A stretch of 64,000 nucleotides of DNA from Desulfatiglandales bacterium (GTDB lineage Bacteria > Desulfobacterota > DSM-4660 > Desulfatiglandales > Desulfatiglandaceae): positions 7,072,001-7,136,000 of the forward strand of contig OY759599.1 of assembly GCA_963662465.1 (NCBI GenBank), in the 5' to 3' direction. The notes under the pieces were generated by a model that worked only from the letters and a program-made list of their open reading frames with translations, ran no database searches and was not told the origin of the DNA. Positions 1,207-52,742 of the stretch are shown piece by piece. Position 1 is the first letter of the stretch. Each line of letters starts with the position of its first letter. The translations under genes and the position numbers were made by a program.

Positions 1207-1357
1207 TCCGCGGATTACGCAGATTGCGCAGATTATTTGTATCGGACCTGATTGCGGAGCTGCACAATAGGTCTAATTCGCATGTACTCGGAAATTTTAA
1301 ATGATAAAACAGAAATCCAAAAAATCCTGTTAATCCTGTCTGAAAATTGGAGAACAT

Positions 1358-1858
1358 ATGAAAATTCCCCTCATTAAACCCTACATCACCCAGGAAGTGA
1401 AAGACAAAGTCTGCGAAGTCCTGGACAGCGGTTACCTCACCGAAGGGCCGGTGACCCGTGAATTCGAGGAAGCCTTTCGATCGTATATCGGCTGCAACCA
1501 TGCCATACCGTCACTTCCTGTACGACCGGCCTGGAGATGGCGTTGCGCGTCCTGAATATCGGCCCTGGAGACGAAGTCATCGTACCGGATTACACCTACC
1601 CGGCCACCGCTGATGTGGTGGCCATTGTGGGTGCTAAGATCGTGATTGTGGATGTGTCCAAAGAAACCATGCTGATCGACTAAGATAAGATCGAATCTGC
1701 GATCACCGAAAAAACCAAAGCAATTATTCCGGTTTCAGGTTTTGGAAATCCGCTCGACTATGAATGTCTTGCTCAAATCAACGAAAAATTCGGGGTCTAT
1801 ATTGTTGAAGACGCGGCCTGCTCCATAACCCCGAATGGGCCGACTGGATGTTTTCATA
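1358..1858 (+). pseudogene. DegT/DnrJ/EryC1/StrS aminotransferase, 5' part
   Basis: MKIPLIKPY...GYLTEGPVTREFEE...; frameshift near 1505, stop at 1681, internal deletion after EDAACSI, then interrupted by an IS. Confidence 0.9.
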
Positions 1859-1900
1859 CGCATAAGTCTAAATGTTGTGGGGTTGTATAACCCATCAAAA

Positions 1901-3709
1901 TTAAAAGGCGTTTTCGGTAAACAAGAATGCATTATGAACATTCATAACTTGAATCCAAGGTAAGTCAAATGTTTGGCCGTTGGCTAATTCAAAGGGACTT
2001 TTATGAGCATTTTTTGCGCCAGGTAAAAATGGGACAAAATTCCTGATAGTCGCATGTGCTCGAAAGAAAAGACTTGCCCATTTCTTATCTCGAAAACTCT
2101 CAATTTGTTTTAGTTTACGTTTGATTCCTTTTAAATAATTGTCAACAATGGAGGTTGTTTGTTTTATCCCATTTCTATTTTTATGAGAGGTATAATGAGT
2201 GGCATTTTCTTTTAATTCTACTACCCTCTTTTTTAGTAATGGATGAGAAAATGCATCGTCATCTAATGCCTTAATCTTTACTTCCAAGTTAACTTTAGAT
2301 GTGGATGTTTTCAAAACTTTCTTAAATTTTTTATAAAGCTTGTCCACTTCTTGGTCGGTACATTTTGATTCTTTTTGATATTTTGATAGTGCATCGTAGA
2401 AGTTTTTCAAACAATGACGATGGCAATATCCGACCCAAATGTTATGGAATACGGTCTTGATAGCATTGGTTGAGGCTTTCCACTTATCTTTTGTTACACC
2501 AAGGATTTTGAAGTCGATTTTTTGCAAAAAATCCTCAAATGAACCGCACAGGTTTTCTTCATCAACATGATCAACATAATCGGAGTGCCATACTAATAAA
2601 TTTTCAGGATCGACCATAACTACAGAATAAGTTCTTAAATTTGGTTCTTTTTCAAAGCCCTCATCTTCCTGTAGATATCCTGAGCCTTTCACTCCTGCTC
2701 TTGTTAGTATTGTTGCAGGATGAAGTGTTCCTGCCCATCGATTCCAGTTCAAGATGGTCTGTTTGCTTTTGACACTTTTTTTGCCAATAATTTTAAGGCT
2801 TTCGATGGCTCCTTGAATGCTCGCATTAAAACGGTACATATTCCGAAATACGTGCCCAATAATCTCTATACCAAAATTCTTTTCCCTTGGGAGAAAGCTG
2901 GGAACAAGAGAGAACTTTTGTTTGCACTTCCGGCATTGTATCATGCGGATTGGGAATGTCTGTTGTTCTCCTCCATTCATTATTGTTTTTCGAGGATTCC
3001 CGCGGAAACCAGATAAAATATATTCTTTAGGTCCAGAACATGTTGAATTATGGCCTGTGTGGTGATCATATTTATCGAGTTTATCTAATACTTCAATGCG
3101 AAACTTCTTACTATCTTTTACGAGAGCATGATAGCTTTCGGTGTTATTATAAGGAAAGATATATGTTTGATTTCCTCGTTTAGAAACAAGGTCTTCCATT
3201 TTCTTTTTTACATTTTCGATTATGGATTTATCAAAAGATTTTAACATCCCTATCTCAAATGCAATACTGATTGTACTATCACGACTTTTTACATTATTCA
3301 ATTTTTTAGTAATATTACTTATCATTGAACGAATTGAATAAAAGATTCTAATTTTCTGTCGATCCCGTTGTGTTTTTGGAATGCTTTTTTTCCCTTTTAT
3401 TGGCTTACAAATATCCCATAATTGACTTATTAACCTACCAAATTCATCAATAAGAGCAGACAATGTTACATAAAAATATTGCAATGATTGAAACATCTCC
3501 CTTTCATTGATCCATGATCTGATGGCATTAATGCATTTCTCAATTTCAAAGAAAATCTCAGGATACTGTTTTGGATCGTAATAACATTGTCTTGCAAGTC
3601 TGTTTTGAGCTTTGTCCAACATTGTCAAAGCTCTCTTAATATTATTAATCATGTGCAACCTCTCTAATTTAACATAGACTGTTGCACTATGATTATGCAC
3701 ACTTATCAA
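1901..3709 (-). CDS. IS-A DDE transposase (602 aa; true start may be a later ATG)
   Basis: ORF lies inside the IRs; TKDKWKASTNAIKTVF..VGYCHRHCLKNF resembles the IS256/MULE D..CxxH region. Confidence 0.8.
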   Translation of the reverse strand: MISVHNHSATVYVKLERLHMINNIKRALTMLDKAQNRLARQCYYDPKQYPEIFFEIEKCINAIRSWINEREMFQSLQYFYVTLSALIDEFGRLISQLWDICKPIKGKKSIPKTQRDRQKIRIFYSIRSMISNITKKLNNVKSRDSTISIAFEIGMLKSFDKSIIENVKKKMEDLVSKRGNQTYIFPYNNTESYHALVKDSKKFRIEVLDKLDKYDHHTGHNSTCSGPKEYILSGFRGNPRKTIMNGGEQQTFPIRMIQCRKCKQKFSLVPSFLPREKNFGIEIIGHVFRNMYRFNASIQGAIESLKIIGKKSVKSKQTILNWNRWAGTLHPATILTRAGVKGSGYLQEDEGFEKEPNLRTYSVVMVDPENLLVWHSDYVDHVDEENLCGSFEDFLQKIDFKILGVTKDKWKASTNAIKTVFHNIWVGYCHRHCLKNFYDALSKYQKESKCTDQEVDKLYKKFKKVLKTSTSKVNLEVKIKALDDDAFSHPLLKKRVVELKENATHYTSHKNRNGIKQTTSIVDNYLKGIKRKLKQIESFRDKKWASLFFRAHATIRNFVPFLPGAKNAHKSPFELANGQTFDLPWIQVMNVHNAFLFTENAF

Positions 3710-3729
3710 AAAAAGTCCCTAACTTTTTT

Positions 3730-5672
3730 GAGAGGTTTGCGCTGTACCGTTTTTGTGCCGTACCGGGGGTGTTCTGGGCCCCAAAAAAACGCGGGCGCGA
3801 GGTCTGAGAGGGCGACATGGCAGCAGAATATTATGGTTTCCAAAGACATACCCCAAAAACCCGATAATTGGACATGCTAATCCCTTTAACTTTAAATTAA
3901 ATCATTTATTTATAACTATTTTAAATAAATTGGATTAGGCGGCTCTGGCTATTGGCCGTACAAGGGAGCGCATTTGCTCAATACGGCCAGCCCTTACATG
4001 ACCAAGGGCCATTGCCATCATTACGGCGGTGGCCAAGCAAACTCTTGTTTGCATTTTGGCTTGGCCGCGTATGTAATGTTTCTCAAAACCAAAATCATTA
4101 TCGATCCGACTGTTGATTCTCTCCAAAGAAGAACGCCGATTATACGCTCGGTCCCAACCCTGCGTACCATAGGGAATGGGTGTGAAGATTCGCCGATCTT
4201 CCTCAGTGATATTTATTCTGACAATTCGCCCATAATCTCCGGGATTAACTTGCCCCGCAGATGAACACTCTCCACATCCTTCACAGGAAAAGCCGTTTGC
4301 AGCTGCGGGACAACGATATTTCAGGGTATTGCGATTTTTTTCAAAGCCACAAAAAGCCATGTCCCGCTGTTCTCCAGTAGCCGGACAAATACAATGGACT
4401 GTCCCTTTCTCAGTATACACAATGGTATCTGCCCGGTCAGGATAAAGAGGTCGTGTGATCGGTTTTGCAGGATCGTATCCCGGCTCATTCTTTTCATCTC
4501 TCCACAGTTCACGGGTATCAATGCCGGGCCGAATCCCATATTCATCCAACAGCTGAGCCTTAGTTTTGCCGGAATCCAAACCACGGTCCGCCACAAAATC
4601 ATCACAGCGCTCGCCAAGCTGCGGTGTTTCCTCAAAAATTTCTTTGATCATGCTTCGCAGTTCCTTGTGTTCCGAATGCGAGGCAGGTGTTACATGAACT
4701 GCCACCGGAATTTCATATAGGGTATCAGCGATCAAATGAAGGCCATATCCAAACCAGCTTTTTACTTTTGTCCACTGCTTTCCGGTTTTACTGTCTGTCC
4801 CTTTCGTTTCATGCTTGCCCCAATCTGCATCCGTATCGGAGGTTTCACCGGTTTTCCGGCTTTCTTGTCCCGTACTATAACTGTTGATAGCCTTGCCGTC
4901 ATACCCTAAATGACAACCAAAATCAGGGAGTTCTGTCATTAAGGATTCTCGAAGCCCACGCACCATGCCGCTGACCATATTACCATATTCTTCCAGTTCT
5001 ATGACGCTCCTTAAAAATCTTGAGAAATTCCAACTACCTGGAACCAAAAAATATGCATTTCCGCTCTCAGACCGTATGATTTCCATTCGGCCCGTTTCCT
5101 CATTGCGTCTCAGTTCAGCTACCGGTTTTTTTTGCCTCGGCAGAATATCAAATCCGCATGCCTCTAATAACGCCGGATTCCTGGACAATTCGCGAATCAA
5201 AGATTCAATGGATGCATGCTGGAACACGACTCCCGCAATAAGCGCGTTCCACATTGCGCGTATCGGAAAATCATCTCTCCCATTGCCGCGACGCTTTTCA
5301 AGTGCCGCTACAATATTCTCATCAGGCAGATTATCGCGCACCAGATAGAAACGGTCCAAATCCGAGCGTGCTTCGACATCATTCCACGAAAAAAGAAACG
5401 GACTCACTGCTGCCAAGTTTCGGCCTCCATCAAATATTTAAAGAAACACTCTATCCTGTTATCTGATGAAGGCATTGTACAATATTTTGTATTAAAATCA
5501 AGGTATTCCGACAAGTTCTTTCGCTTGGGGTGAAAAAATGGAAAATTCCGACTCGATCTAGCTAAGTGCTTGATTTCAGGATGCCCACCCATCTTTTTTT
5601 TGGGGTAATGTTTTTTTGACACTGCCAAATCCCTCCAGGATACCAGAGACTTAAGCACAGCGCAAACCCCTC
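3730..5672 (-). mobile_element. IS-B copy 1 (1943 bp, IS1182/IS5-like)
   Basis: IR GAGAGGTTTGCGCTGT / ACAGCGCAAACCCCTC; duplicates a T6 run relative to intact IS-A copies; near-identical copy at 30562-32504. Confidence 0.95.
3935..5416 (-). CDS. IS-B DDE transposase (493 aa)
   Basis: YDGKAI, WFGYGLHLIAD, ADRGLD and YNRRSSLERINSRI motifs of IS4/IS5-superfamily DDE enzymes. Confidence 0.9.
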   Translation of the reverse strand: MAAVSPFLFSWNDVEARSDLDRFYLVRDNLPDENIVAALEKRRGNGRDDFPIRAMWNALIAGVVFQHASIESLIRELSRNPALLEACGFDILPRQKKPVAELRRNEETGRMEIIRSESGNAYFLVPGSWNFSRFLRSVIELEEYGNMVSGMVRGLRESLMTELPDFGCHLGYDGKAINSYSTGQESRKTGETSDTDADWGKHETKGTDSKTGKQWTKVKSWFGYGLHLIADTLYEIPVAVHVTPASHSEHKELRSMIKEIFEETPQLGERCDDFVADRGLDSGKTKAQLLDEYGIRPGIDTRELWRDEKNEPGYDPAKPITRPLYPDRADTIVYTEKGTVHCICPATGEQRDMAFCGFEKNRNTLKYRCPAAANGFSCEGCGECSSAGQVNPGDYGRIVRINITEEDRRIFTPIPYGTQGWDRAYNRRSSLERINSRIDNDFGFEKHYIRGQAKMQTRVCLATAVMMAMALGHVRAGRIEQMRSLVRPIARAA

Positions 5673-5821
5673 TTTTTTCCGCTAAGGCGAATTCAGGAAA
5701 AAATGTTTGGCCTCACGAAATGCGCTTTGATTAGGATATTGATTCGGAACCGTTTAACAGATGAAATAATTTCAATATGTTAGAGTAAACCCCACAACAT
5801 TTAGACTTATGCGTTTTCATA

Positions 5822-6308
5822 TAAACATTTCGGCATGGGGGTCAACGATTCGAGGCTCTCCACGGACTTCGCCCGGATCGGCACCAACTACAAACTCAGC
5901 AACATCCTGGCGGCGGTCGGTTTGGTTCAGATGAATCATGTTGACGAACTGCTCAACCAACGACTTGAATTGTCTCAAAATTACATCGAACTCCTTCAAG
6001 GTCAGAAACAGGTTGTCATTCCCAAAACCACGGCCCAGGGAAAACACTCCCGGCAATCCTTCTGCATCTACGTAAACAATCGCGACCAAATCATGAAGCA
6101 GATGCGGGACCAGAGCATCGAGGTGCAGATCGGCACCTACGCCCTTCATCTCCACCCGGCATTCGTCCCCAGCGATTTCTGCCACATCCAAGGCGACATG
6201 GCCGGGAGCAAATATGCTTTTGATCATTGTCTTACCCTGCCACTCTATCATGAGTTAACGAAAACAGACCAGGAAACTGTCGTCGATATTCTGAAGCATT
6301 TTCTGTAA
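5822..6308 (+). pseudogene. DegT-family aminotransferase, 3' part
   Basis: Continues WMFSY|KHFGMG across the TSD; GTNYKLSNILAAVG and LTLPLY motifs. Confidence 0.9.
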
Positions 6309-6328
6309 AATATACACCTTATGTTCAT

Positions 6329-6643
6329 ATGAAAAGCCCCATTCAGTTCCCGTCTATGGCTCTTTACGAAAGCAACCGCAAGCATAAAGAACCCTGGCAA
6401 CCCGGTGCGCGCGGGTCACTCTGCCCTCCTAACCTTCATCCTCTGGCGCAGAAACTGCTTGACGAAAGCGATCTTTTGGGGAATAAGAGATACGCGGTTT
6501 ACGAGGGGAAAGCCTTTTGTGCTCAACAACATACGGAAGGCAGGTGGCATGGGTATCCGGTACTGTGGAGGGAAGTCCCGGAAGCCGTCAGGAGAAAATG
6601 GCTGAACGAGGGTAAAATCGTGCGCCGGGATCTCAAGACGTGA
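6329..6643 (+). CDS. Small hypothetical protein (WHGYP motif) upstream of ImmA/IrrE peptidase
   Basis: ORF with KHK..GSLCP and RWHGYPV motifs; operonic with 6669-8231. Confidence 0.6.
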   Translation: MKSPIQFPSMALYESNRKHKEPWQPGARGSLCPPNLHPLAQKLLDESDLLGNKRYAVYEGKAFCAQQHTEGRWHGYPVLWREVPEAVRRKWLNEGKIVRRDLKT

Positions 6644-6668
6644 AGATATCTGAGCATGGGATAAAGAA

Positions 6669-8231
6669 ATGAATACCTGGAAAGCCTGTTTTGGGAAAAA
6701 AGAAGAATTCGCCATTGCCGTTGATTTTGTGCCGGACCCGGATCAGGGACAAGGGGCTACGGCAGAGGATACCGCCTCCTGGGGATCGTTGGAGATTTGG
6801 GTCAAGGGGCAAAACCTTTGCGAGCACATCGAGGATGGCCGGATCATGCCGTCTGTGAACTGGTACCTGCTTCCTTTTCTGGAATGGCTTTCCCAATGCT
6901 GGGATCCCCTGTTGCATGAACAGAAGCTTCCCATAAAGCAGAGTGATGCCAAAAATACCGCATGGGCTTCTTTTCAGAGCCTTTTCCAGCCTCCCATCGG
7001 TTACGATGACAACCAGGCCTCGGAATGGGATAAAAAATGGCATGAGTGGATGACTCGGCACAGTCTTCTAATGGCCAGGGACGGAGGTCTTTTTCCGGAT
7101 CTTTTCATTCGGCGGTATCGCGATCAGATAGAACTATCATGGGGAGAGATTCTGCACCCCGGCGCCCCCCAGGGTTTCCGCTTTTGCGTTCCTGGTGGGT
7201 TTGTGCGGTTGTCGCCTGCCTCGGTTTCAGAACCCCTTTTCGAGCTATTGAAAGGTTCAGCCCAATTCCTAATGGACCGATGCGCCGGTTCAGAGAGGAT
7301 AGAAATCCTAAGCCAGGCTATTCAGCGTATTCCGCAGGCTGATCAAACAGCGCGTTTGGCGTGGCTGGCGGGTTTGGACCTGGAAATCGGGAAAGCCATA
7401 GGCCGATGGAATCGATTTGTGGAAAGGGTTACCGATACACTCAGCGAGGCAGGCAAACGCCTTTTTTCAGAAAGCCAATCTCTCGCAAATATCGTTATAA
7501 CAGGATCTTGTGATGCAGCCATGATGTTCGGTTCTCTTGCGCCGACCATAGAGGAAGAGGATGTGGTGGTGATCGCCCGCAAGATGATCGAAGCCGCGGA
7601 GCAGAAACAGCATGCCGAAGTATTGGAGCGATTGACAAGACCCGTTCAGTTGGATGACGATCCATCGCCCCCGTGGGAACAGGGCTACAATTTGGCAATG
7701 GCTTTGTACGAGGAAATGCCCGTCAGCCAGAGCGGCGGGTCTGTTGATGTGGCAGGCGTGCTAAGGGGATTGGGTATTCATTTTGGGGAGATCTCCTTGA
7801 CAGACGGCGAGATCCGCGCAATCAGCCTGGCTGGCCCTCGTCATCAGCCGACCATTCTGCTCAATACCAATAACCCTACAAATCAGTACGATTCAGGCCG
7901 GCGATTCACCTTTGCTCATGAACTGTGTCATCTTCTTTATGACCGGACATATGGCATGAAACTGGCAATGGCGTCAGGCCCGTGGGCGCCCAGGGATATC
8001 GAAAGACGCGCCAATGCCTTTGCAGCTATGTTTATCATGCCCACCCACTTGGTAAGGGAACTGTTCGGACGGCTGACGAGTTCCAGGATAACCATCCAGG
8101 AGATTCTGGAAATGGCCGCGACACTGAAGGCGAGTGTGGTCGGCGTGATCGATCATTTGAAGAACCTCGGGTTTATTGATGAAGACGCACAGGAAAGGTT
8201 GAAGGAAGAGGCCGCCAAAGCCCATTCGTAA
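6669..8231 (+). CDS. ImmA/IrrE-family zinc metallopeptidase with long N-terminal extension
   Basis: RRFTFAHELCH (HEXXH) and ERRANAFAAMFIMP in the C-terminal third. Confidence 0.85.
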   Translation: MNTWKACFGKKEEFAIAVDFVPDPDQGQGATAEDTASWGSLEIWVKGQNLCEHIEDGRIMPSVNWYLLPFLEWLSQCWDPLLHEQKLPIKQSDAKNTAWASFQSLFQPPIGYDDNQASEWDKKWHEWMTRHSLLMARDGGLFPDLFIRRYRDQIELSWGEILHPGAPQGFRFCVPGGFVRLSPASVSEPLFELLKGSAQFLMDRCAGSERIEILSQAIQRIPQADQTARLAWLAGLDLEIGKAIGRWNRFVERVTDTLSEAGKRLFSESQSLANIVITGSCDAAMMFGSLAPTIEEEDVVVIARKMIEAAEQKQHAEVLERLTRPVQLDDDPSPPWEQGYNLAMALYEEMPVSQSGGSVDVAGVLRGLGIHFGEISLTDGEIRAISLAGPRHQPTILLNTNNPTNQYDSGRRFTFAHELCHLLYDRTYGMKLAMASGPWAPRDIERRANAFAAMFIMPTHLVRELFGRLTSSRITIQEILEMAATLKASVVGVIDHLKNLGFIDEDAQERLKEEAAKAHS

Positions 8232-8237
8232 ACACAA

Positions 8238-8610
8238 GATAAATATTGCCTGTACTGGCAGAGACTGATAGACAACCTCTATATCAAAGAAATCTTTGCA
8301 CCCGTATGGGATGGTGTTAAGGGTGTTTGGATGCGTGATATATTCTGGAATGTCTTTTTGAAACATGGCCACAATCTTCAAAAACCCGAAGATTATATTA
8401 ATCATTCCATGACTTTTGAGGCAAAGACTTTCCTTCATGGTCTCTTATTGGTAGAAGACAAGATTAGCATGGCTCATGGTCTTGAAGTGAGGGTCCTTTT
8501 TTTGGACAACGATCCGGTTGATTTTGCTATGCGTGTTCCTGTTCGTTTGAAATTGAAGCATCTGGCAAATATAGAACGAATTAATGAAAATGAGCCCGGA
8601 TCGAAACAGG
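8238..8610 (+). pseudogene. Internal fragment of asparagine synthase-like amidotransferase
   Basis: FEAKTFLHGLLLVEDKISMAHGLEVRV.FLDND.VDFAM motif; both ends missing. Confidence 0.8.
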
Positions 8611-9008
8611 AGTTGTATTGGCTCTCGGCGCATGGCGGTGTTGGAAGGAACCCAGCGCAGGATACAAGGCCTGGATAAGCTGAAAAATCACAACTCCAAT
8701 GCGAGCCAAGCAGTAAACCAATGCGGTGAGGGGTGTATGTGAGCCTTCACTTAAGCTTCCGCTGTATTGGGAAGGCTGTTTGAGGAAAGCCACGAGAAAC
8801 TAAATTAATTAAAGAGCGTCCCCCTGCCCATGTATGCCATGCGCCATGCTCCCTGCGCTATGCGATATCGCGTCCCCCTGCCCTAATGGGGTGGAACAAA
8901 ATCACACTGCCATTCCCTGGCATTGGTCAATTATTTTGCATTGACAAAGGCACCATTATGACGTACATTTATGCAGCGTGTTGATAAAAAACTCAGGGAA
9001 ACTTTACC

Positions 9009-11141: not shown

Positions 11142-11143
11142 GG

Positions 11144-20115: not shown

Positions 20116-20126
20116 TCTGCGGACCC

Positions 20127-44249: not shown

Positions 44250-46152
44250 GTGCGCCTGTGAAGGCGCTTTATCAGTGCGGTGAAAGTCCGTACCGGAGTA
44301 TGCCATAGCTCCGTAGCCGAAGGTAACTGCGTCGCCGCGAGGCGGGGTGGAGAGCAACCGGAGGCGAAAAGTCAGTCCGTAGGATGACGAACCCGATTCG
44401 GTGTCATGTGGTGGCGAGCCTACCGTTCCATGGTGAAGCCTGAAACTCACAGACCACGCTGTAATGGCGGTTAAAGCGATGGTTTGACGGCATGGTATGT
44501 TTGGGGTCGGAATGACTGGAAGGTAAAGCGAGATAAGCAGGGAGACCTGTCTCTTGGGGTGACAGGAGGCAGGAGTCAGAGTCCTCATAGTACCGTAGCG
44601 ACAGAACGGTCCTGCTAACAAGGCTTACGGCGTGAGACCAGTACCCGCCGCCTGCGTCGGATACCGGGTTGTGAAAAGCGCGGATAGCAAAACCGTGCCG
44701 AGGGAAGGAGGATAGGAAGATAGATACGGAAAGGTCATATAGATGCAGCTAAATCAAGCAGTCTCGGCAGTGTTGGAAACAACTAAACGCGAGGCAGAAA
44801 CCCGATGGGATTGGGTGGAAGCATCGGTGTGGACGGAACGTATGTTGGCAGCCCTGGGTAACGGGGTGAAAGGTGGTAAATGGTACAGTTTGATGGATAA
44901 GGTGTTCGCCTTGTCGACGCTGGAAGCGGCTTGGGGACGTGTCAAAGCCAATAAAGGAGCGGCAGGGATAGACCGTATCAGCATAAAGCGCTTTAAGGAG
45001 CAGGCGGAGAAATACCTTGCCGAACTGCATGAAACCTTGAAAGCGGGAACGTACCGACTGGAAGCGGTAAAACGGGTATACATTCCGAAAAGCGACGGCA
45101 AACAACGCCCGCTGGGGATACCCACGGTCAAAGACCGGGTAGTGCAGGCAGCGGTTAAAATGGTTATGGAGCCCATATTCGAGCATGAATTTCTGCCGAT
45201 GAGTTACGGCTTCAGGCCGCAAAGAGGTTGCAAGGACGCGTTGCGAGAAGTAGACGCGCTTATTAAGGAAGGCTACACCTTCATACTGGACGCCGACCTG
45301 AAAAGTTACTTTGATACGATTCCGCACGATAAGCTGATGCAACAAGTCGAAATGCGCATCAGCGACGGCAAATTGCTCAATCTGATTCAAATGTTCCTGA
45401 AACAGGACGTGATGGACGGCTTGGAAAGATGGACACCGACGGGTGGTTCGCCACAAGGGGCGGTAGTCAGCCCCTTGCTTGCGAATATTTACCTGCATCC
45501 TCTTGACAGCCTGATCGCGGAATCAGGTATGCGGATGGTGCGTTACGCGGACGACTTTGTTATCCTCAGCCGCAGTCAAACGGAAGCGGAGAATGCTTTG
45601 CAAAAGGTACGGGAGTGGGTACAGGCTAATGACCTGAGCTTACACCCGGACAAGACGCATCTTGGCGACTGTCGACAAAAGGGTCAGGGATTTGAATTCC
45701 TGGGATACCGGTTTGAGGCAGGAAAGCGCTGGATACGCAGTAAAAGCCGTAAAGCCCTTCGTGATAAAATCCGGGAAGAGACCCGGCGCAAACGTAGCGG
45801 AAGTATGGAAAGCATCATTGATGATCTGAACCCCATGCTTGAAGGCTGGTTTGGTTACTTCAAACACGCCTACCGCACTGAGTTTGCGGCGGTGGATAAG
45901 TTTGTCCGCCGACGCTTACGCGCCGTATTATTGCGTCGTAACAAACGCAAGGGCTGGGGCAAAAGCCTTGAAGCCCACCGCCGCTGGCCGAATGCCTACT
46001 TCGCGAAAATCGGGCTTTTCACTATGCATGAGGCCCGGTTAGCAGCGTGCCGATCCCGATGAGGAAACTATCGACCGGAGAGCCGTGTGCGGGAGAACCG
46101 CATGCACGGTTCGGAGGGAGGGGAGAGCCAAGAGGCTCTTTCCTACCCCTAT
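44250..46152 (+). mobile_element. Group II intron
   Basis: 5' GTGCG; domain V GAGCCGTGTGCG..CGCATGCACGGTTC; 3' end CCTACCCCTAT. Confidence 0.9.
44743..46062 (+). CDS. ltrA: Group II intron reverse transcriptase/maturase, no En domain
   Basis: RPLGIPTVKDR, PQGAVVSPLLANIYL, RYADD. Confidence 0.95.
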   Translation: MQLNQAVSAVLETTKREAETRWDWVEASVWTERMLAALGNGVKGGKWYSLMDKVFALSTLEAAWGRVKANKGAAGIDRISIKRFKEQAEKYLAELHETLKAGTYRLEAVKRVYIPKSDGKQRPLGIPTVKDRVVQAAVKMVMEPIFEHEFLPMSYGFRPQRGCKDALREVDALIKEGYTFILDADLKSYFDTIPHDKLMQQVEMRISDGKLLNLIQMFLKQDVMDGLERWTPTGGSPQGAVVSPLLANIYLHPLDSLIAESGMRMVRYADDFVILSRSQTEAENALQKVREWVQANDLSLHPDKTHLGDCRQKGQGFEFLGYRFEAGKRWIRSKSRKALRDKIREETRRKRSGSMESIIDDLNPMLEGWFGYFKHAYRTEFAAVDKFVRRRLRAVLLRRNKRKGWGKSLEAHRRWPNAYFAKIGLFTMHEARLAACRSR

Positions 46153-46157
46153 AGAGG

Positions 46158-46396
46158 AACTCAAAACTGTTTTTTTCCACAACCCAAAACCCAAAACCTA
46201 AAACCCAAAACTGTTTTCTTCCACAACCCAAAACCCAAAACCTAAAACCCAAAACTGTTTTCTTCCACAACCCAAAACCCAAAACCTAAAACCCAAAACT
46301 GTTTTTTTCCACAACCCAAAACTCAAAACCCAAAACTCAAAACCGTTTTTTTCCACAACCCAAAACCGCCTTTTTAATACCCAAAACTCAAAACTG
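46158..46396 (-). repeat. Right arm: AAAACCC/AAAACTC array with 44-bp higher-order unit
   Basis: Reverse complement of 43653-43783. Confidence 0.9.
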
Positions 46397-46675
46397 CTCT
46401 AATTACGTTCGAATATCTGCTGAATTTTGGGGAAGCGTTGATGAAACAGGGGATTACTCGGGTGGTAAATAACCTGGAGGAATGATCTCGCGCAGAGGCG
46501 CAGAGGCGCAGAGAAAAGAAGGGCGAAATAATGTTGGCAACCTTGTAAACTTACTCAGGGCGGTGGTCCACATACCGGAAGAATCCCTACACCGAAACGC
46601 AAAAGGGTTTTTTGCTTGACGGCGGGGTGTTGGTACCTGGTTGCCATTTGATAAGATTTGGGTTACTATCGAATC

Positions 46676-47677
46676 ATGAGTAATGAAATCGGATCAGCGC
46701 ACAATAATCTGTTCCAGAACATCCTTGGCCGTGAAGATATGGCCAGGGATTTTGTCCGGTATTATATGCTGGCGGAAATCGTCGGCGATCTGGACCTGGA
46801 TACTTTGGAAGTGGCTTCTGAATCGTATATCAGTGATGATCTCAAAGAGAGCCTTTCCGATATCGTACTTAGCCTCCAGCTCAAGGATGGGGATCTGGCT
46901 GAAATATACATTCTTATGGAACACAAAAGCGGGTTGCACAGCGGCACGCGGCTGCAACTTTTGAAATATATGAACGCCAAATGGCATGAGCTGGACAAGG
47001 CCGGAGAGTTTCGGGGATCACTGGCTGTTATCATTCCCGTGGTTTTCTACCATGGCAAGAAAAAATGGAGATACAGCCTGGAATTCTCGGACCAGTTCAA
47101 TCTGCCTGGAGAACATTACAGGAGATATGTGCCCAAATTCGAGCATATTTTGCATGAAGTTCCGGAGATCAACAAGCGCAAGATCAAATCCACCATCGCT
47201 CTTGAAGTATTTCATGTGGTGCTGGAGTGTATTTTTTACCCGGAGAAACGGGAGCGAATTTATGAATCCCTTGAGTTGTTGTTTCAGGGGTTAAACACGG
47301 ATAAGGCCGGCGAGCTGTTTTATGTGTTTGTCAAATACCTGCTTTCCGCCACCGATGTAAACCCCAGAGAGGTGGAAAAGAGGGTAAAACATCTTCCAAA
47401 AGGAGAAGAGACCGTGCGTACCACAGCAGAAGTTTTGAGGAAAGAAGGGTATGACAGGGGAGTGGTTTTCGGCGAACAACATGGCAAGCTTGAGGCCACT
47501 CAGGAAACACTCATAGACGTTGCCGGTGAACGATATGGCCTTTTACCTTCAGTATTGGAAGCGAAAATCAAATCCATTAAGTCCATCACGACTTTGAAAA
47601 ATTTGGCAAGACAAGTCGTTAAACTGGACAGGATGGAGGGTTTTGAAAGGCTGGTCAACAAGGCTGTGGATCATTGA
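46676..47677 (+). CDS. Rpn/YhgA-like recombination-promoting nuclease (PD-(D/E)XK)
   Basis: HNNLFQNIL, SDIVLS, YILMEHKS, IPVVFYHG. Confidence 0.9.
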   Translation: MSNEIGSAHNNLFQNILGREDMARDFVRYYMLAEIVGDLDLDTLEVASESYISDDLKESLSDIVLSLQLKDGDLAEIYILMEHKSGLHSGTRLQLLKYMNAKWHELDKAGEFRGSLAVIIPVVFYHGKKKWRYSLEFSDQFNLPGEHYRRYVPKFEHILHEVPEINKRKIKSTIALEVFHVVLECIFYPEKRERIYESLELLFQGLNTDKAGELFYVFVKYLLSATDVNPREVEKRVKHLPKGEETVRTTAEVLRKEGYDRGVVFGEQHGKLEATQETLIDVAGERYGLLPSVLEAKIKSIKSITTLKNLARQVVKLDRMEGFERLVNKAVDH

Positions 47678-47967
47678 TGCCAACTGAAATTCCAAACCCC
47701 ACCCAAAACATAGTACCCCTTCCTTTCCCTTTACCTATTTTAGCCCAAAGCTATTTTGGGTAATCTGTTCCAATTATCTACTCACCTTGGCCTTGAGCTT
47801 ACTCGTAATGGAATGGGACGTTGTTCCGTAATTCCGTTTTTTGACCACGAATCACACAGAGGACGGGGGACAGAGGACGGAGGACGGAGGGCAGAAGTCA
47901 GAGGGCAGAGGACGGATCGCAGGTCTCAGGAATTGGGCATAAAAACAGCCATTTCAGAATCTTCGGT

Positions 47968-48128
47968 TCCATTCCACATTCGATATTATTGAGGCGGCGA
48001 AAAAGGGGTTGTTGCCGGATAAGATGATGATTAATACTCATTCGCAGAGGTGGACGGATAATCCGATTGAGTGCACGAAGGAGTTGGTTTGGCAGAATGT
48101 GAAGAATGTTGTGAAACGTATTGTTGTT
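47968..48128 (+). pseudogene. C-terminal fragment of the 'HPQRW' protein
   Basis: FHSTFDII..LPDKMMINTHSQRWTD..KELVWQNVKNVVKR. Confidence 0.65.
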
Positions 48129-48235
48129 CGCAGATTACTATCCGCAGATTACGCAGATTGACGCAGATTAGGGTTCTCACGCAAAGACGCCACGACGCAA
48201 AGAAGGGAGTCGGAATAATCTGAAACCCCCGGACA

Positions 48236-48976
48236 ACACCTCCTCATCACACGAGATACCCAAACAAATGAACCCATTAAATCCTGAAGAGCCGAAAAAT
48301 GTCAGCGGAGTCCGCCCGTTGTTCTGGGTGTTGTGGATTTCTGTTTGCTGAACCTGGCGTTTTTTCTGCTCAATTACTGGAAACGGGGATCTTTTGAGCT
48401 GAACCCCATCTATGGGAAGCTGCTGCTGGCCTTTTATGGGGTCTGGCTGGTGATTTCCCTGGCCAATAAGAAATTTCAGTGGCGGGAATACGCAGGGTTG
48501 GGTAAAGGGCTGTGGAGGCCCTGAACTGCAGTTGTGGGTTTTGGGTTAGGGAACTGCAGTTTTGAGTTTTGAGTTTTGAGTTTTGGGTTTTGAGTTAAAG
48601 GAAACGTCCTGATTATGGGTGATGGGAAGATCTTTAAAGACAGTTTTGGGTTATGGGTTTTGGGTTATGAGTGAAAGGAAGATAGACGAGCGGACTTTTG
48701 AGTTTGCTTTACTGGTTGTGGATGGTTATAAATTTCTTCTGGGGAAAAAGGAGTTTGTGCTTTCGAAGCAGTTTTTAAGGGCTGGTACTTCGATCGGTGC
48801 GAATGTGACGAGGCCCAAGCTGCCCAAAGCAGGAAAGATTTCATTAAAACTGTAGTTTCTTCCAAAACCCAAAACCCAAAACCGCCTTTTCACAACCCAA
48901 AACTCAAAACCCAAAACTCAAAACCCAAAACTCAAAACCGTTTTTTTCAATGCCCAAAACTCAAAACTCAAAACCG
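48236..48976 (+). repeat. Second unit: sugar transferase 5' fragment, heptamer arm, truncated four-helix-bundle gene (48667-48845), inverted arm
   Basis: Same breakpoints as the units at 43361 and 52134. Confidence 0.9.
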
Positions 48977-48988
48977 CTCTAACTATTG

Positions 48989-49330
48989 CTACAATGTGGG
49001 TCTGGCAAGTTTCTGGGAAACAACGGCATTTAACGAGATCCCGGCTTTGGCAGCCTCGATAGCAAGGGCTCGGTGTACCCGACGATCAATTCGTACATTG
49101 AATTGTCCGCTGTATTGCTTTCTTGCCGGTGCAACGGGAACCGCTTCCCCGTGTTTTTGGTAGCTTTCCTTCACACCTTCCCAAGCGGTCTGTAGTTCGT
49201 GCAGAGCGTCTTCCGGCGACTCCCCAAATGCGGATACGTTCGGCAGTTCAACAAAATGCGCGAGATATTCGCCATCGTCGTCCAAAAACACATTGATGGT
49301 GTATCCATCGAATGGATCAAACCTTTTCAT
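48989..49330 (-). CDS. hicB: HicB antitoxin
   Basis: ELPNVSAFGESPEDAL, YSGQFNVRI..HRALAIEA. Confidence 0.9.
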   Translation of the reverse strand: MKRFDPFDGYTINVFLDDDGEYLAHFVELPNVSAFGESPEDALHELQTAWEGVKESYQKHGEAVPVAPARKQYSGQFNVRIDRRVHRALAIEAAKAGISLNAVVSQKLARPTL

Positions 49331-49562
49331 TTTTAGTCTCCTCATATTGCACCACCTGCTCTACCTGGTAGCCCTTTGCCTTTCCACTCCTGCCTTCCTG
49401 GATGGGAAGCCGGCGCCGTTTTGGGGAATACCAAATTTGGTGATTGCCCTTCTGATGATCGAATATCCACCCAGCTTGACGTAAAAGTGTCTGAAATTCA
49501 CCGAAGGAGAGGTCCTTCGGGTTGTTAATGGCACGGGCTAAAAGTTTTTCACGTTTAGTCAT
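49317..49562 (-). CDS. hicA: HicA toxin
   Basis: KGNHQIW..LPIQ..GKAKGYQVEQ. Confidence 0.88.
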   Translation of the reverse strand: MTKREKLLARAINNPKDLSFGEFQTLLRQAGWIFDHQKGNHQIWYSPKRRRLPIQEGRSGKAKGYQVEQVVQYEETKNEKV

Positions 49563-49803
49563 GGTGTAACTATATGCAGTTACCAACCAAAAGTCAAGAG
49601 AAGGGATGGGGGTCGGGTCATGAGCCGATCGGAGTTGCTGGGCCGGCTTTGTTTCTGCGGGTTTGAGATTGTGTAACTCGCGCAGAGACGCCAAGGCGCA
49701 GAGAAAAGAAGGGTTTTTTGGTTTTTCTTTGCGTCTCTGCGTCTCTGCGCGAGAATAAAATAAGTTGATAAGGGACATAAAAAGACTGGGGAGGGGGGTA
49801 GTT

Positions 49804-50076
49804 ATGAGGATTGAAGGTAAAGATGTGGTGAACAAATTAAGGGATTATTTTAATCATAGTGTCTCTCTCCCTGAGTTGGTTGATTGGGCTGAGCAAGCGA
49901 TGATGGACGCAGATTTTATTGGAAAAGACTGGAAAACAGTACGGGATATTGTGGCTCGCATCGGGGTGGCTGACGTTCGTGCGTTTGGGCTGACCTGGGA
50001 GGACTGTGAGCAATCGTTAATGGCGCTCGGATATCGAACAGAAGTCCGGATTTCCCAAGCTTCTGCCCTAAACTGA
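49804..50076 (+). CDS. Hypothetical protein
   Basis: ORF with RBS; LVDWAEQAMMD..FGLTWEDC. Confidence 0.6.
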   Translation: MRIEGKDVVNKLRDYFNHSVSLPELVDWAEQAMMDADFIGKDWKTVRDIVARIGVADVRAFGLTWEDCEQSLMALGYRTEVRISQASALN

Positions 50077-50107
50077 CACCTCCTCATCACACGAGATACC
50101 AAAACAA

Positions 50108-52105
50108 ATGAACCCATTAAATCCTGAAGAGACGAAATATGTCGGCGGAATTTCGCCCGCTGTTCTGGGTGTTGTGGATTTCTGTTTACTGAACCTGGCG
50201 TTTTTTCTGCTCAATTACTGTAAAAGGGGATCTTTTGAGTTGGCCCCAAAATATGGGAAGCTGCTGCTGGCCTTTTATGGGGTCTGGCTGGTGATTTCCC
50301 TGGCCAATAAGAAATTTCAGTGGCGGGAATACGCAGGGTTGGAAAAGGGGCTGTGGACCCTGGTCCGATGCGGGCTGTATCTGGCCTACTGTGTGGCCGT
50401 CATGGTGGTGATCATGGGCCTTTATGCCTATTCCAGGGGGCAGGTGTTTGGGACCTGCCTGGTGTTTGTGGGACTGGAAGGGGTCGTGTTCGGGGGGGCG
50501 TATTTCCTGCTTCGGCGGTCCAATGGGGGGGACGTAAGGCGGGAACCATTGATGGTGGCGCGCCCTGCCCGAATTTCCTGGCGGCTGGCGGTGGTGGATT
50601 TTGTGCTGGTGGGGGTTTCCTTTTTAGTGGTCAATTATCTGAAACGGGACAGCTTTCATATCCTTCCGGATTATGAGAAACTGCTGCTGTTGATCTATGG
50701 GTTGTGGTTTGTCTGTTCGCTGGTCACCCGGAAGTTTGAACATCTGAATTACATGAATTACTACCATGGCCTCTGGCCGTGGATCAAGGCGATGATTCTG
50801 TTGGCCTTTTCCCTGGGGGTGATGGTTTTTCTGTTTCGGTTTCAGTATTTTTCAAGAACCCAGGTGTTTGGGCCCATGGTCTTGCTGATGGTGTTGGAGA
50901 CGGTTTTCTACCGGTTTTATTTTGAGCGCAAAAAACGGGTCGGCGCCGAGGGAGATATTGAATCTGCTGATACAGTGTCCCGCATCCTGAAGCAGGAACC
51001 GTTGACGGTGGAAACGGATCTGGAGGCCCTGAAGCAGGCGTTTTTGTCGCCCATTCGGGAGCGGTTGCGGGATCGGTACCTGAAAAATCATTCGGGGCTG
51101 TTTTCGCTCATGGACCGGTCCATGGATCTGGAGGGCATTTTAAGGGCGGAAACGGCCATTCGAAACAGCAGTGAAATGCTCTATTCCGATACCGCGGGCG
51201 AGCGATACATGCGGTTGTTCGTTAATCTGCGGAAGATCAATGATATTCGGTATATCAACCAGTATTTTCTGGCGGTGCATAATTTGTTGATTCCCGGGGG
51301 GTACCTGGTGGGGCGCGCCCATACCCTTGCCACCCATCGGGAATGGATGATCCGGAAGTTTCCGCGGCAGTTGGCCAATGCCCTGTACGCAGTGGATTTT
51401 CTGTTTAACCGGGTGATGCCCAAACTTCCATGGGTCAAGCAGGTCTATTTTTCCGTGACCAGGGGGAAGAATCGGGTCATGAGCCGATCGGAGTTGCTGG
51501 GCAGGCTTTGTTTCTGCGGGTTTGAGATTGTGGGGGAAGAAGATATTGACGAACGGTTCTGCTTTGTGGCGCGAAAGGCCAAAACCATCTCCAGGGTGGA
51601 AAACCCGTCTTATGGTCCCCTGGTGGGGTTTAACCGGATCGGGGCCGGCAATAAACCCATTCGAACCTATAAATTCCGGACCATGCACCCCTATTCCGAA
51701 TTTCTGCAGGATTATGTGTATGAGAAAAGCGGCCTTCAAAAGGGGGGAAAGCTGGAGAATGATTTTCGCATTACGGCCTGGGGAAAGGTGATGCGGAAAC
51801 TCTGGCTGGATGAGCTGCCCATGCTGTACAACTGGGTGCGGGGGGAGCTGCAGCTCTTTGGGGTGCGGCCGTTGAGTGCGCACTATTTCAGTTTGTATCC
51901 ACAGGATTTGCAGGAACTGAGGGGGCGGGTGAAGCCGGGGCTGGTGCCGCCGTTTTATGCGGATATGCCGGTGACGTTTGAGGAGATCTGTGAGTCGGAG
52001 CGGCGGTATATTTTGGCTTATTTGGAACGGCCGGTTTGGACTCAGGTGGTTTACTTTTGGAAGGCTTTTTGTAATATTGTGTTTCGGGGTGCGAGGAGCG
52101 GGTGA
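50108..52105 (+). CDS. Sugar transferase (priming glycosyltransferase family) with duplicated N-terminal membrane modules
   Basis: YKFRTM, DFRIT.WGKVMRKLWLDELP, GVRP, KPGL. Confidence 0.9.
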   Translation: MNPLNPEETKYVGGISPAVLGVVDFCLLNLAFFLLNYCKRGSFELAPKYGKLLLAFYGVWLVISLANKKFQWREYAGLEKGLWTLVRCGLYLAYCVAVMVVIMGLYAYSRGQVFGTCLVFVGLEGVVFGGAYFLLRRSNGGDVRREPLMVARPARISWRLAVVDFVLVGVSFLVVNYLKRDSFHILPDYEKLLLLIYGLWFVCSLVTRKFEHLNYMNYYHGLWPWIKAMILLAFSLGVMVFLFRFQYFSRTQVFGPMVLLMVLETVFYRFYFERKKRVGAEGDIESADTVSRILKQEPLTVETDLEALKQAFLSPIRERLRDRYLKNHSGLFSLMDRSMDLEGILRAETAIRNSSEMLYSDTAGERYMRLFVNLRKINDIRYINQYFLAVHNLLIPGGYLVGRAHTLATHREWMIRKFPRQLANALYAVDFLFNRVMPKLPWVKQVYFSVTRGKNRVMSRSELLGRLCFCGFEIVGEEDIDERFCFVARKAKTISRVENPSYGPLVGFNRIGAGNKPIRTYKFRTMHPYSEFLQDYVYEKSGLQKGGKLENDFRITAWGKVMRKLWLDELPMLYNWVRGELQLFGVRPLSAHYFSLYPQDLQELRGRVKPGLVPPFYADMPVTFEEICESERRYILAYLERPVWTQVVYFWKAFCNIVFRGARSG

Positions 52106-52133
52106 TGTTTAACTTGCGCAGAGACGGAAAAGC

Positions 52134-52570
52134 AGTTTTGGGTTTTGAGTTTTGGGTTTTGGGTTTTGGGTTAGGGAACTGCAGTTTTGGGTTTTGGGTT
52201 TTGAGTTTTGGGTTAGGGAACTAGGGAAAAGCAGTTTTGGGTTTTGGGTTTTGAGTTTTGGGTTAGGGAACTAGGGAACAGCAGTTTTGGGTTTTGGGTT
52301 TTGGGTGAAAGGAAGATAGATGCGCGGACTTTTGAGTTTGCTTTACTGGTTGTGGATGGTTATAAATTTCTTCTGGGGAAAAAGGAGTTTGTGCTTTCGA
52401 AGCAGTTTTTAAGGTCTGGTACTTCGATCGGTGCGAATGTGACGGAGGCCCAAGCTGCCCAAAGCAGGAAAGATTTCATTAAAACTGTAGTTTCTTCCAA
52501 AACCCAAAACCCAAAACCCAAAACTCAAAACCGCCTTTTCAATGCCCAAAACCCAAAACCAAAAACCGCC
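52134..52570 (+). repeat. Third unit: heptamer arm, truncated four-helix-bundle gene (52301-52480), inverted arm
   Basis: Same deletion GATTTCATT|AAAACTGTAG as the copy at 48667. Confidence 0.9.
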
Positions 52571-52742
52571 TTTTCAACCGTTGTGGCCGAGGGTTCTCTC
52601 GCCCCGGTTAAATAAGGGCCAAAGAGATTTAACTGGGTAAACAAAAAGGCGCAAAAGACGCAAAGACGAATTGAAGATGAAATCTGAGAGTGTAAAAGCT
52701 GGGAGGCAATTGGATCCAGGGTCTGAAGGAGGTGATTGATCG

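Follow-up and report, generated by a model that had tools for sequence, protein, structure and literature searches.

Two small gene families between inverted tandem-repeat arms: candidate fold-back cassettes in a scrambled polysaccharide locus of a Desulfatiglandales bacterium

INTRODUCTION

Short degenerate tandem repeats crowd a polysaccharide locus of a Desulfatiglandales bacterium, and some of them face each other across a small gene. The question raised by this locus is whether such a gene and its repeat arms form a unit and, if so, of what kind. The stretch analysed here, referred to as the window, comprises 64,000 nucleotides (contig OY759599.1, positions 7,072,001 to 7,136,000). The original prediction, made from its letters, was an integrase-free cassette system in which gene plus arms would be a mobile or recombinogenic unit. 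On balance, the best explanation is that there are two families of selfish single-gene fold-back cassettes without a recognised transposase. In one family, an Avd-like four-helix-bundle gene would lie within inverted arms built from about five 7-nt units; in the other, a gene for a minimal PD-(D/E)XK (Cas4/RecB-like) nuclease, here GxxExxY, would be enclosed by inverted arms with about three 9-10-nt units. The window itself is best read as a pile-up of intact, hollowed-out, and half-lost cassettes, and not as an integron-like carrier of the neighbouring toxin-antitoxin genes.

REPEAT ARMS AND CASSETTES IN THE WINDOW

Six families of degenerate tandem repeats lie where the original prediction had placed them, and they are far above chance: a pattern search found 59 arm clusters of the six families, compared with a mean of 0.4 in 20 shuffled windows. 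Arms are 4- to 300-fold denser in three paralogous polysaccharide loci of the genome, the bounds of which were set post hoc with the arm density already known, than in the rest of it. In a search of sequencing runs, about 90% of the sequence words fell in two runs, probably from the source sample, and RNA runs had small shares, to which no weight is given. At least two arm types (ACAGAAGGTAACGAAG-like and AATGCTG) and a GGGGAC(A/G)T end motif, separate from the arms, had escaped notice before. The arms do not always face each other, and orphan clusters dominate both halves of the window:

1207..17190, no strand assigned: left array, with 16 orphan right-type arm clusters, ugd and its fragments, and toxin-antitoxin and Bro-N cargo
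17790..52670, no strand assigned: right array, with mainly orphan left-type arms among toxin-antitoxin modules, IS copies, and host-gene fragments

From 1.2 to 17.2 kb, 16 of 17 arm clusters are right-type, without left partner; beyond 17.7 kb, 39 of 47 are left-type and all 8 right-type clusters close a pair (the pattern missed two weak right arms, and one left match, at 44101, is coding sequence). The left array contains an intact ugd (12036-13724) as well as 3' ugd fragments at 10002, 15108, 15529, and 17193, which are 87-91% identical.

The four-helix-bundle family is represented by whole and by halved genes:

40725..41445, plus strand: intact four-helix-bundle cassette, with left GAGGAC(A/G) heptamer arm, gene 40893-41297, and right arm 41330-41445
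43645..46400, plus strand: intact four-helix-bundle cassette, with TTTTG(G/A)G arms, gene 43784-44152, and a split right arm
44252..46153, plus strand: group II intron with reverse transcriptase (44743-46062), with 12 further near-identical copies in the genome
48528..48978, plus strand: internally deleted TTTTG(G/A)G cassette with the 5' half of the gene
52126..52577, plus strand: second internally deleted TTTTG(G/A)G cassette, directly past the stop of a WcaJ-like gene

The expected four-helix-bundle gene between GAGGAC(A/G) arms is there, as gene 40893-41297 passes TIGR02436; its arms are unusually long. The two whole genes score 108.3 and 94.8 bits against a cut-off of 24 (TIGR02436 / PF05635), and the two half genes also lie above the TIGR02436 cut-off. 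What had been taken for an arm at 44152-46396 is indeed a right arm, but a short one, split by a hairpin and the group II intron. The intron is a passenger outside the cassette proper; an allele of the TTTTG(G/A)G cassette without it is found in genome G010, and an Rfam scan of the window returned only the group II intron domain and an Acido-Lenti-1 hairpin. The pairs 48531/48847 and 52134/52481 do consist of TTTTG(G/A)G repeats, but each encloses no more than the 5' half of the four-helix-bundle gene that the intact TTTTG(G/A)G cassette carries. Upstream of the deleted cassette at 48528..48978 lies a duplicate of the 5' part of a sugar-transferase gene.

The GxxExxY family is present as one cassette and several gene-less pairs:

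19608..20123, plus strand: GxxExxY cassette, with two left CGCAGATTA arms, gene 19735-20115, and right arm 20095-20123
17776..17870, plus strand: gene-less GACAGGATT pair, a multicopy unit with a conserved spacer
25521..25603, plus strand: second gene-less GACAGGATT pair, with 79% identity to the 17776..17870 pair
38203..38344, plus strand: gene-less CATGAAG pair, with a copy at 40015-40156
49674..49757, plus strand: gene-less CGCAGAGA pair, homologous to hairpins around the GxxExxY gene at C1:108671 of genome G000

The GxxExxY gene (136.9 bits against a cut-off of 35; TIGR04256 / PF13366) is enclosed as predicted, but by two left arms instead of one, and a 16-codon stub of a similar gene sits between these two. 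Pieces of a metallo-beta-lactamase/beta-CASP gene border the cassette, a 5' one (19400-19607) and a 3' one (20124-20486), and both joins adjoin CCGG. The empty pairs proposed at 17792-17863, 25537-25600, 38205-38340, and 49677-49753 are all present, that at 38205 with a second copy (40017-40152). The GACAGGATT arm type borders GxxExxY genes elsewhere, and the spacer of the CATGAAG pair starts like the GxxExxY gene that bears CATGAAG-type arms at locus L014.

The window is a scrambled polysaccharide locus, and orphan TIRYT transposon ends mark many of its joints:

21065..40700, plus strand: five copies of a composite end (21065, 23282, 33366, 36831, 40659), a TIRYT-type terminal repeat followed by a CGCAGAGA left arm

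In each of these copies different upstream DNA is joined at the GGGAC terminus. Separate GGGGACGT TIRYT ends border a Y1 gene at C1:4146555 of G000. This decayed polysaccharide locus probably lost its serotype core and was rebuilt from pieces common to the paralogous loci. Most joints would have been made by TIRYT transposon ends plus short microhomologies, and the arms in the window would be largely hitch-hiking debris.

THE ARMS FOLLOW TWO GENE FAMILIES ACROSS PHYLA

Outside the window, gene plus arms recurs across phyla as a discrete unit, in agreement with the original prediction. In a survey of best HMM/BLAST matches, which include near relatives so that counts are not independent, an inverted-arm score of at least 28 was reached by 83 of 113 GxxExxY genes and 78 of 94 four-helix-bundle genes, compared with 1.8% of 669 control ORFs and 8% and 4% of cross-locus pairings. 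The repeat period is 8-10 nt in 74 of the 93 scored arms of GxxExxY genes and 7 nt in 70 of 83 for the four-helix-bundle genes; 23 of 70 left arms measure 31-33 nt, i.e., five anchors. The proposed covariation between repeat unit and protein clade was also found, since arm type tracks clade in an 81-protein tree (10 changes against 40 when shuffled), in which one supported clade with a single arm type spans six phyla. This covariation can be simple shared descent. The arms of one locus match each other better than same-type arms from other loci. The cassette is a unit bounded by its own arms that travels across phyla with its own arm type. It occupies, co-oriented, the gap of a few bases that separates a stop codon from the ribosome-binding site that follows. 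By contrast with what had been expected, enrichment in polysaccharide operons is only local, and elsewhere 6 of 79 downstream neighbours are polysaccharide genes.

The GxxExxY profile matches 18,211 clusters at 50% identity (E up to 1e-10). Of 41 related genomes, 22 have GxxExxY genes; every one of these carries four-helix-bundle genes as well, and the two families may act together. There was no sign of phage carriage in a viral scan, which gave 2 GxxExxY loci at that sensitivity.

FILLED, EMPTY, AND DECAYED JUNCTIONS

Orthologous junctions in related genomes occur in filled, empty, and deleted states, as a mobile unit had led the original prediction to anticipate. At one junction, 15 genomes carry intact cassettes of three GxxExxY clades (6 + 5 + 1) or internally deleted ones (3), and nine more distant genomes have an empty site (3), one arm (3), a four-helix-bundle unit (1), or unrelated DNA (2). 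At a second junction, G000 and G004 have a cassette where G021 and G110 have an empty site. Filled and empty sites were compared at 77-84% protein identity, at which insertion points and target duplications are not exactly readable. The multiple states at one junction (empty, filled, internally deleted, one arm) indicate that 'empty pairs' and orphan arms are what remains of decayed cassettes, which internal deletion reduces to gene-less pairs and to single arms. In G000, two cassettes from unrelated sites share 90% identity over a stretch that runs precisely from arm to arm. An invertible phase-variation switch was considered and rejected, since the 12 intact alleles at one junction all lie the same way round.

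No fixed target duplication was found in 140 native cassettes, and 5-mer flank repeats at GxxExxY loci show a small excess (21 against 10.8 expected). Cassettes are sometimes amplified between ordinary insertion-sequence ends. Elsewhere in G000, 10 of 15 IS-ended cassette derivatives have 8-bp target duplications; IS66/ISBst12-type ends were seen in 2 of 161 surveyed armed cassettes and in none of the window, where the IS66 element at the right end lacks the GTAAC-type ends of the G000 MITEs. Ordinary IS ends account for the clearest amplifications of recent date, so that some of the spread can do without a cassette protein.

THE ENCODED PROTEINS

The GxxExxY family is listed without an assigned function in PMC3424549. 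Its model (pLDDT 95.8) has a restriction-endonuclease-like fold, and residues E26, D66, E76, and K78 are invariant in 131 sequences. The best Foldseek match is Cas4 SSO0001 (E 2e-4). The top rows of a structure search (Z 7-7.9, rmsd 2.4-3.6 over 85-101 residues) are tied among PD-(D/E)XK members, and no single nuclease family stood out in searches with this model. The modelled fold and the E...D...ExK residues place GxxExxY in the PD-(D/E)XK nuclease superfamily, with predicted activity. The solved relatives of the four-helix-bundle protein both have five chains; this protein has no known catalytic role. A complex prediction for three four-helix-bundle chains plus GxxExxY scored 0.00 and gives no evidence either way. 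Median dN/dS values of 0.105 (40 pairs) and 0.135 (6 pairs) point to purifying selection on both cassette gene families.

HOW THE CASSETTES MIGHT SPREAD

For the mobilising step of the selfish cassettes, we infer that the encoded protein would recognise its own arms: a five-subunit ring would match five repeats, and the nuclease three helically phased sites. A DNA stem would form by pairing of the arms, and the unit may enter or replace DNA via a cut near the stem foot and host microhomology repair, leaving no fixed target duplication. A bolder reading, possible though rather doubtful, is an undescribed class of self-mobile DNA, widespread among bacterial phyla, in which the place of a transposase is taken by a stand-alone nuclease of the Cas4/RecB type or by an Avd-like five-subunit ring, with matched arm stoichiometry (which may be five heptamers per pentamer), stop-to-start targeting, and displacement of resident cassettes. 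Movement of the cassettes by their own proteins, if it occurs, would amount to mobility in the absence of any known transposase.

It is unlikely that the cassettes are instead passive mRNA intervening sequences (IVSs), the arms of which pair in the transcript while the loop is bypassed or cut by RNase III, so that the insert is nearly harmless and spreads by flanking-gene recombination and capture between IS ends, without mobilising activity of its own. Several observations suit this explanation: in 101 of 112 cases the cassette has the orientation of the gene upstream, a looped-out cassette leaves no more than about 25 nt from stop to next start, cassettes lie inside housekeeping operons, IS-ended derivatives with 8-bp duplications exist, and the IVS of Coxiella combines a four-helix-bundle ORF and heptamer repeats with a stem of 28 bp, which RNase III cuts (PMC4990558). 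Folding of the arms in operon mRNA, as originally proposed, is possible on paper, but arm mismatches lack the RNA-type G·U excess on the sense strand (G·U against A·C, 51 vs 61 and 64 vs 68; tRNA control, 11 vs 1). Passive inserts also leave purifying selection on both proteins and the invariant catalytic residues unexplained, and they fit poorly with the replacement of one clade by another at a single junction.

Still less likely, the cassettes might be modules that benefit the host, in which arm fold-back blocks translation of nuclease or ring until phage infection or stress lifts the block (abortive infection or addiction), or which act as a TRAP-like operon regulator; hok/sok and TRAP are the analogies. 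The low dN/dS, the many toxin-antitoxin genes around the window cassettes, the restriction-modification genes among downstream neighbours (6 of 79), and the left arms that often abut the start codon would agree with a host function. However, these 79 neighbours are mainly unrelated housekeeping genes, copies are often truncated or shrunk to gene-less pairs, and the patchy cross-phylum spread suits selfish elements.

An integron without integrase, in which arms are general recombination sites that capture or exchange any small gene, for example a toxin-antitoxin module, is improbable. Orphan arms are co-oriented within each window half and in the orthologous locus of G010, which has the same architecture, and some modules change neighbours inside an arm. 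As exchange homology the arms find weak support at best: module breakpoints are mildly enriched near them (27 of 115, against 10.9% expected over all positions; against intergenic positions, 27 of 73 versus 26.6%, p = 0.03, with ends that are not independent), but 88 of 115 lie elsewhere, and several exact joints fall at TIRYT ends. Single arms also persist at lone junctions without cargo. The notion that the arms serve as a cassette system for small cargo of every kind finds no support, as inverted arms enclose only two gene families; no toxin-antitoxin module in the window lies within inverted same-family arms, the modules being placed between units.

Ordinary simple-sequence repeats or an assembly artefact are scarcely credible and are refuted by the survey of other loci, the arm-clade tree, and the G010 orthologue: the genome end does repeat the 90-102 kb region near-exactly and arms do grow as tandem higher-order units, but the same architecture recurs in more than 150 other loci, and window copies differ by 8-14%, unlike collapsed repeats.

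COMPARISON WITH KNOWN SYSTEMS

Parts of this picture are already published (the Coxiella IVS heptamers and the paired repeats of Geobacter and Xanthomonas), and no paper was found that joins them; nor was any literature found that links these genes to tandem arms outside rRNA, in a search that covered a minority of subscription journals. The arms tie two very large families without an assigned function to cognate DNA sites, which makes their function testable with defined substrates.

Integrons share with the window an array of small accessory genes, many toxin-antitoxin pairs, and co-oriented repeats in between. The window differs in lacking one-site-per-gene spacing and in having host-gene fragments as part of the array, and no tyrosine integrase lies beside it among the 110 of 503 open frames scanned with Pfam. 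The Avd protein of diversity-generating retroelements is a five-subunit four-helix-bundle ring homologous to the cassette protein (PMC10053308). Such a retroelement was rejected for the window: the Avd model scores 43.5 against a cut-off of 80, and its only reverse transcriptase is the group II intron maturase.

MITEs of the IS66/ISBst12 group are exemplified by ISDge4 ends with an 8-bp repeat (PMC12898284); like ends and 8-bp target duplications occur on some derivatives in G000 and in family f3. The genes enclosed by cassette ends match no transposase family. REPtrons/REPINs and TIRtrons resemble the cassettes in their single small gene, cognate inverted repeats, and scattered gene-less derivatives (PMC3733652; bioRxiv 10.1101/279083), and gene-less derivatives of cassette ends are likewise dispersed in intergenic DNA. 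Their gene (RAYT, TIRYT), however, is an HUH tyrosine transposase, whereas that of the cassettes encodes a PD-(D/E)XK nuclease or an Avd-like ring, and no HUH Y1 transposase gene was found between tandem arms. The cassette arms are tandem arrays, unlike REPtron and TIRtron repeats, and true TIRYT ends form a separate class in the window.

Paired tandem-repeat sites of Geobacter metallireducens comprise three 8-9-nt units in class 2 and five heptamers in class 3 (PMC2700814), and inverted heptamer pairs are described in Xanthomonas (PMC4692102). Both share with the cassettes short tandem repeats that face each other across a variable spacer. They have been interpreted as regulator-binding sites or quadruplexes, with no gene linked to them in the available text of either paper. 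The cassettes offer a possible origin for paired heptamer and nonamer repeats of this kind, which are unexplained features of bacterial intergenic DNA.

A close likeness is the helix-45 23S rRNA IVS of Coxiella burnetii, in which, as in the window unit, a four-helix-bundle ORF (S23p, PF05635) lies in terminal inverted repeats with heptamers before the start codon (PMC4990558). It is the only tested relative of these cassettes and is handled as RNA by RNase III. The four-helix-bundle cassettes carry the IVS hallmarks, namely terminal complementary arms, heptamer repeats, and an S23p ORF. Rfam detected no rRNA in the window, and the neighbours of the cassettes are protein genes, unlike the 23S rRNA location. 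ORF-bearing rRNA IVSs could have originated as one landing site of a wider element. The cassettes differ from them in lying between protein-coding genes, in the large number of copies and clades that a genome contains, in arm mismatches without RNA-type G·U bias, and in having a counterpart that carries a nuclease gene.

Two gene families and their arms

Armed cassettes, that is, single small genes enclosed by two inverted tandem-repeat arrays (arms), are real and widespread, and the six repeat families of the window are the arms of just two gene families. In the window's own genome, 7-nt arms surround four-helix-bundle genes (TIGR02436; bundle genes) and 8-10-nt arms surround various GxxExxY genes. 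The GACAGGATT and CGCAGAGA arm types, gene-less in the window, flank GxxExxY genes elsewhere in the genome, and the CATGAAG type encloses a GxxExxY gene in another genome (G007, locus L014). The inverted repeats originally predicted around both families were recovered in loci pooled from relatives, GTDB genomes, metagenomes and viruses: among genes that cover at least 75% of the profile and have complete flanks, an arm score of at least 28 was reached by 83 of 113 GxxExxY and 78 of 94 bundle genes, counts which are not independent, the loci being best hits with near relatives included. The same score was reached by 1.8% of 669 other ORFs of these loci and by 8% and 4% of cross-locus pairings. 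The repeat period of arms scoring at least 24 is 8-10 in 74/93 and 7 in 70/83, respectively.

The expected covariation of arm type and protein clade was also found: mapped on a tree of 81 GxxExxY proteins (a quick tree of 118 columns with many unresolved forks), the five arm types are explained by 10 changes, whereas shuffled types take 40. The tree leaves out 2 of the 83 armed genes, whose arm type could not be assigned. Among its supported clades, one that has the same arm type throughout covers six phyla. This agreement shows shared descent, not recognition. Within an arm type, the two arms of one locus match each other better than they match arms from different loci (medians 42 vs 31, 40 vs 18, and 49.5 vs 20), and they are therefore kept or copied in concert. 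The dN/dS ratio is close to 0.1 for each family (40 and 6 pairs), and two cassettes at unrelated sites of the window's genome share 90% identity that runs precisely from one arm to the other. Among 41 related genomes, GxxExxY genes occur in 22, each of which also has bundle genes; nine genomes have bundle genes only and ten neither, although kinship and incomplete genomes inflate these counts.

Insertion context

The upstream gene has the same orientation as the cassette in 50/59 and 51/53 cases for the two families, the left arm begins a median of 7.5 and 2 nt past the upstream stop, and the right arm terminates about 16 nt ahead of the next start. Co-orientation cannot tell an RNA from a DNA mechanism, because presumably only expressed copies would stay intact. 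No fixed target duplication was found among native cassettes. The proposed enrichment in polysaccharide operons is not general: of 79 downstream genes, 57 have a Pfam match, and polysaccharide and restriction-modification genes number six each, many others being housekeeping genes (e.g., tRNA synthetases, SecA, ATP synthase gamma). The polysaccharide link is therefore local.

Filled, empty and decayed junctions

At one junction in 15 genomes of one family (from 18 loci, with one duplicate and two incomplete loci left out), three clades with three arm types hold 6, 5 and 1 intact cassettes, and three further cassettes are internally deleted, with the gene ends alone retained. Of nine more distant genomes in which both flanking genes are present, three have an empty junction (2-14 nt), three a single arm, as called by eye, one a four-helix-bundle unit and two unrelated DNA. 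The predicted filled and empty states recur at a second junction, filled in the window's genome and G004 but empty in both G021 and G110. Given this series, the empty pairs and orphan arms of the window are best read as decay products.

The window as a broken polysaccharide locus

The polysaccharide locus that makes up the window is broken: ugd and a WcaJ-like sugar transferase gene are whole, but several other genes are fragments. Also present are more than 12 toxin-antitoxin or similar small modules, IS copies and one group II intron. The 8.16-Mb genome contains two further paralogous loci with pieces in common with the window at 85-100% identity. In G010, of the same genus, the orthologous locus has a ~48-kb serotype core with a single arm pattern match within it; no core of this type is present in the window. 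As a separate observation, the contig end (C1:8147000-8161625) is a near-exact repeat of 90000-102000, through either recent duplication or an assembly overlap that was not trimmed.

Mobile and related features of the window
21869-23153: RAYT-like Y1 transposase gene (22599-23063), flanked on either side by REP-like hairpins
22025-22069: Acido-Lenti-1 match (Rfam)
26984-28904 and 53152-64000: 2-kb IS with a DUF6431 protein, four copies in the window, three grouped at 53-61 kb
26984-28904 and 53152-64000: two IS types with ORFs matching Druantia DruA and Mom
44185-46153: group II intron in a right arm, immediately behind a REP-like hairpin; the genome has 12 further, nearly identical copies
46676-47677: Rpn/YhgA-like nuclease gene, with a TIRYT-type end on one side and a left heptamer arm on the other

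Re-examination confirmed the six repeat families in place, with 59 arm clusters against 0.4 per shuffled window (pattern count). Arm density is 4- to 300-fold higher across the three polysaccharide loci than in the remaining genome, the borders of these loci having been set after arm density had been looked at. Of the four arm pairs ascribed to bundle genes, two enclose whole genes and two half genes, and the GxxExxY unit is present with its arms but sits between two pieces of another gene. The right arm of one bundle cassette is interrupted by the intron; G010 has neither hairpin nor intron at this site. Class C introns typically insert after hairpins. Some arms and cassette genes are broken by small inserted palindromes of 25-50 bp, another class of tiny mobile hairpins (window 9965-10000, 11975-12015, 35319-35365 and 52595-52640; surveyed loci L064, L065 and L066). 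Arm-type heptamer arrays also lie in frame within protein genes (C1:7041200-7041260; upstream gene of L090), encoding short repeated peptides in loops, and a left arm has grown into tandem arrays of ~105-bp higher-order units at C1:8147900-8149100 and C1:86200-88900 (>20 copies at the latter).

Contrary to the original claim, opposite arms do not always face each other: 16 of 17 clusters are right-type in the left 17 kb and 39 of 47 left-type in the rest. Orphan arms and the ends of TIRYT elements (a class related to REPtrons, in which one HUH tyrosine transposase gene, RAYT, is flanked by cognate inverted repeats) reverse polarity around the (lost) serotype core in the window (1207-52670), its paralogous loci and G010 (C1:1.06-1.18 Mb); one-ended joining by a TIRYT transposase would be a candidate source of this flip. 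As to arms as exchange homology, some window modules do change neighbours inside an arm, but of the 115 module breakpoints between the window and its copies, 27 are close to an arm and 6 to a TIRYT end, and most of the joints lie elsewhere, often within genes. Arms are also unlikely to be general capture sites for any small gene, no toxin-antitoxin module being found between inverted same-family arms. The Rpn/YhgA-like nuclease gene has 95% identical copies in both paralogous loci.

Transposon ends on arms

A separate motif of the window is the terminal repeat of a TIRYT-like Y1 element, inverted around such a gene elsewhere in the genome and similar to the published consensus GGGGWSAS. The unit formed by this end and a CGCAGAGA arm occurs in five copies, the same terminus being joined to five different upstream sequences, and it cuts short a bundle gene in G010. 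Outside the window, MITEs of ~80-260 bp combine a 12-bp end matching ISBst12-group IS66 ends, heptamer arms and a bundle gene remnant (e.g., C1:6186310-6186551, 8021149-8021390 and 3997438-3997693); there are 57 end sites in the genome, and 10 of 15 paired MITEs under 400 bp show 8-bp duplications (at most one mismatch). A search for their cognate transposase found none. The same ends surround GxxExxY cassettes in family f3. In G022 (L263-L282), a bundle cassette with other, 13-bp inverted ends and 8-bp duplications is amplified at many sites; most copies are pseudogenes, and one occupies the junction holding GxxExxY cassettes in f3. Of 161 armed cassettes surveyed, just 2 carry ISBst12-type ends.

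DNA or RNA stem

The arm pairs of the window are predicted to form strong duplexes on either strand. On the sense strand, G·U mismatches between paired arms do not outnumber A·C mismatches (51 vs 61 and 64 vs 68); as a control, tRNA acceptor stems of the same genome give 11 vs 1. This pattern argues against selection on an mRNA stem and would agree with DNA sites or templated copying. Cutting of arm stems by RNase III, as in the Coxiella IVS, is compatible with the missing G·U excess; that account (PMC4990558) demonstrates the cutting, and the IVS it describes lies in 23S rRNA and carries a four-helix-bundle ORF along with heptamer repeats.

The proteins

GxxExxY is modelled as a minimal PD-(D/E)XK nuclease fold, in which E26, D66, E76 and K78 are invariant and Q90 and Y94 nearly so. 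A QxxxY motif is a mark of RecB-like nucleases. The best Foldseek match of the model is a Cas4, and in a wide structure search many members of the superfamily tie at Z 7-8. Many of the top representatives (P0001-P0020) are tandem two-domain proteins of 240-295 residues. For the bundle protein, the entries of both solved relatives contain five chains, and a pentamer is also described in published accounts (including PMC4990558). The commonest arm length, 31-33 nt (23/70 left and 17/70 right arms), corresponds to four units plus a fifth anchor, the window's own arms being far longer; the match between five anchors and a five-chain ring is suggestive only.

Comparison with known systems

The separate parts are already in print, including the Coxiella IVS heptamers (PMC4990558); a literature search found no paper that joins them. 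A mobilising step for the cassettes is what we infer. In design they are similar to REPtrons and to IVSs, but from each of IVSs, ISs, REPtrons, integrons and DGRs they differ in a tested feature.
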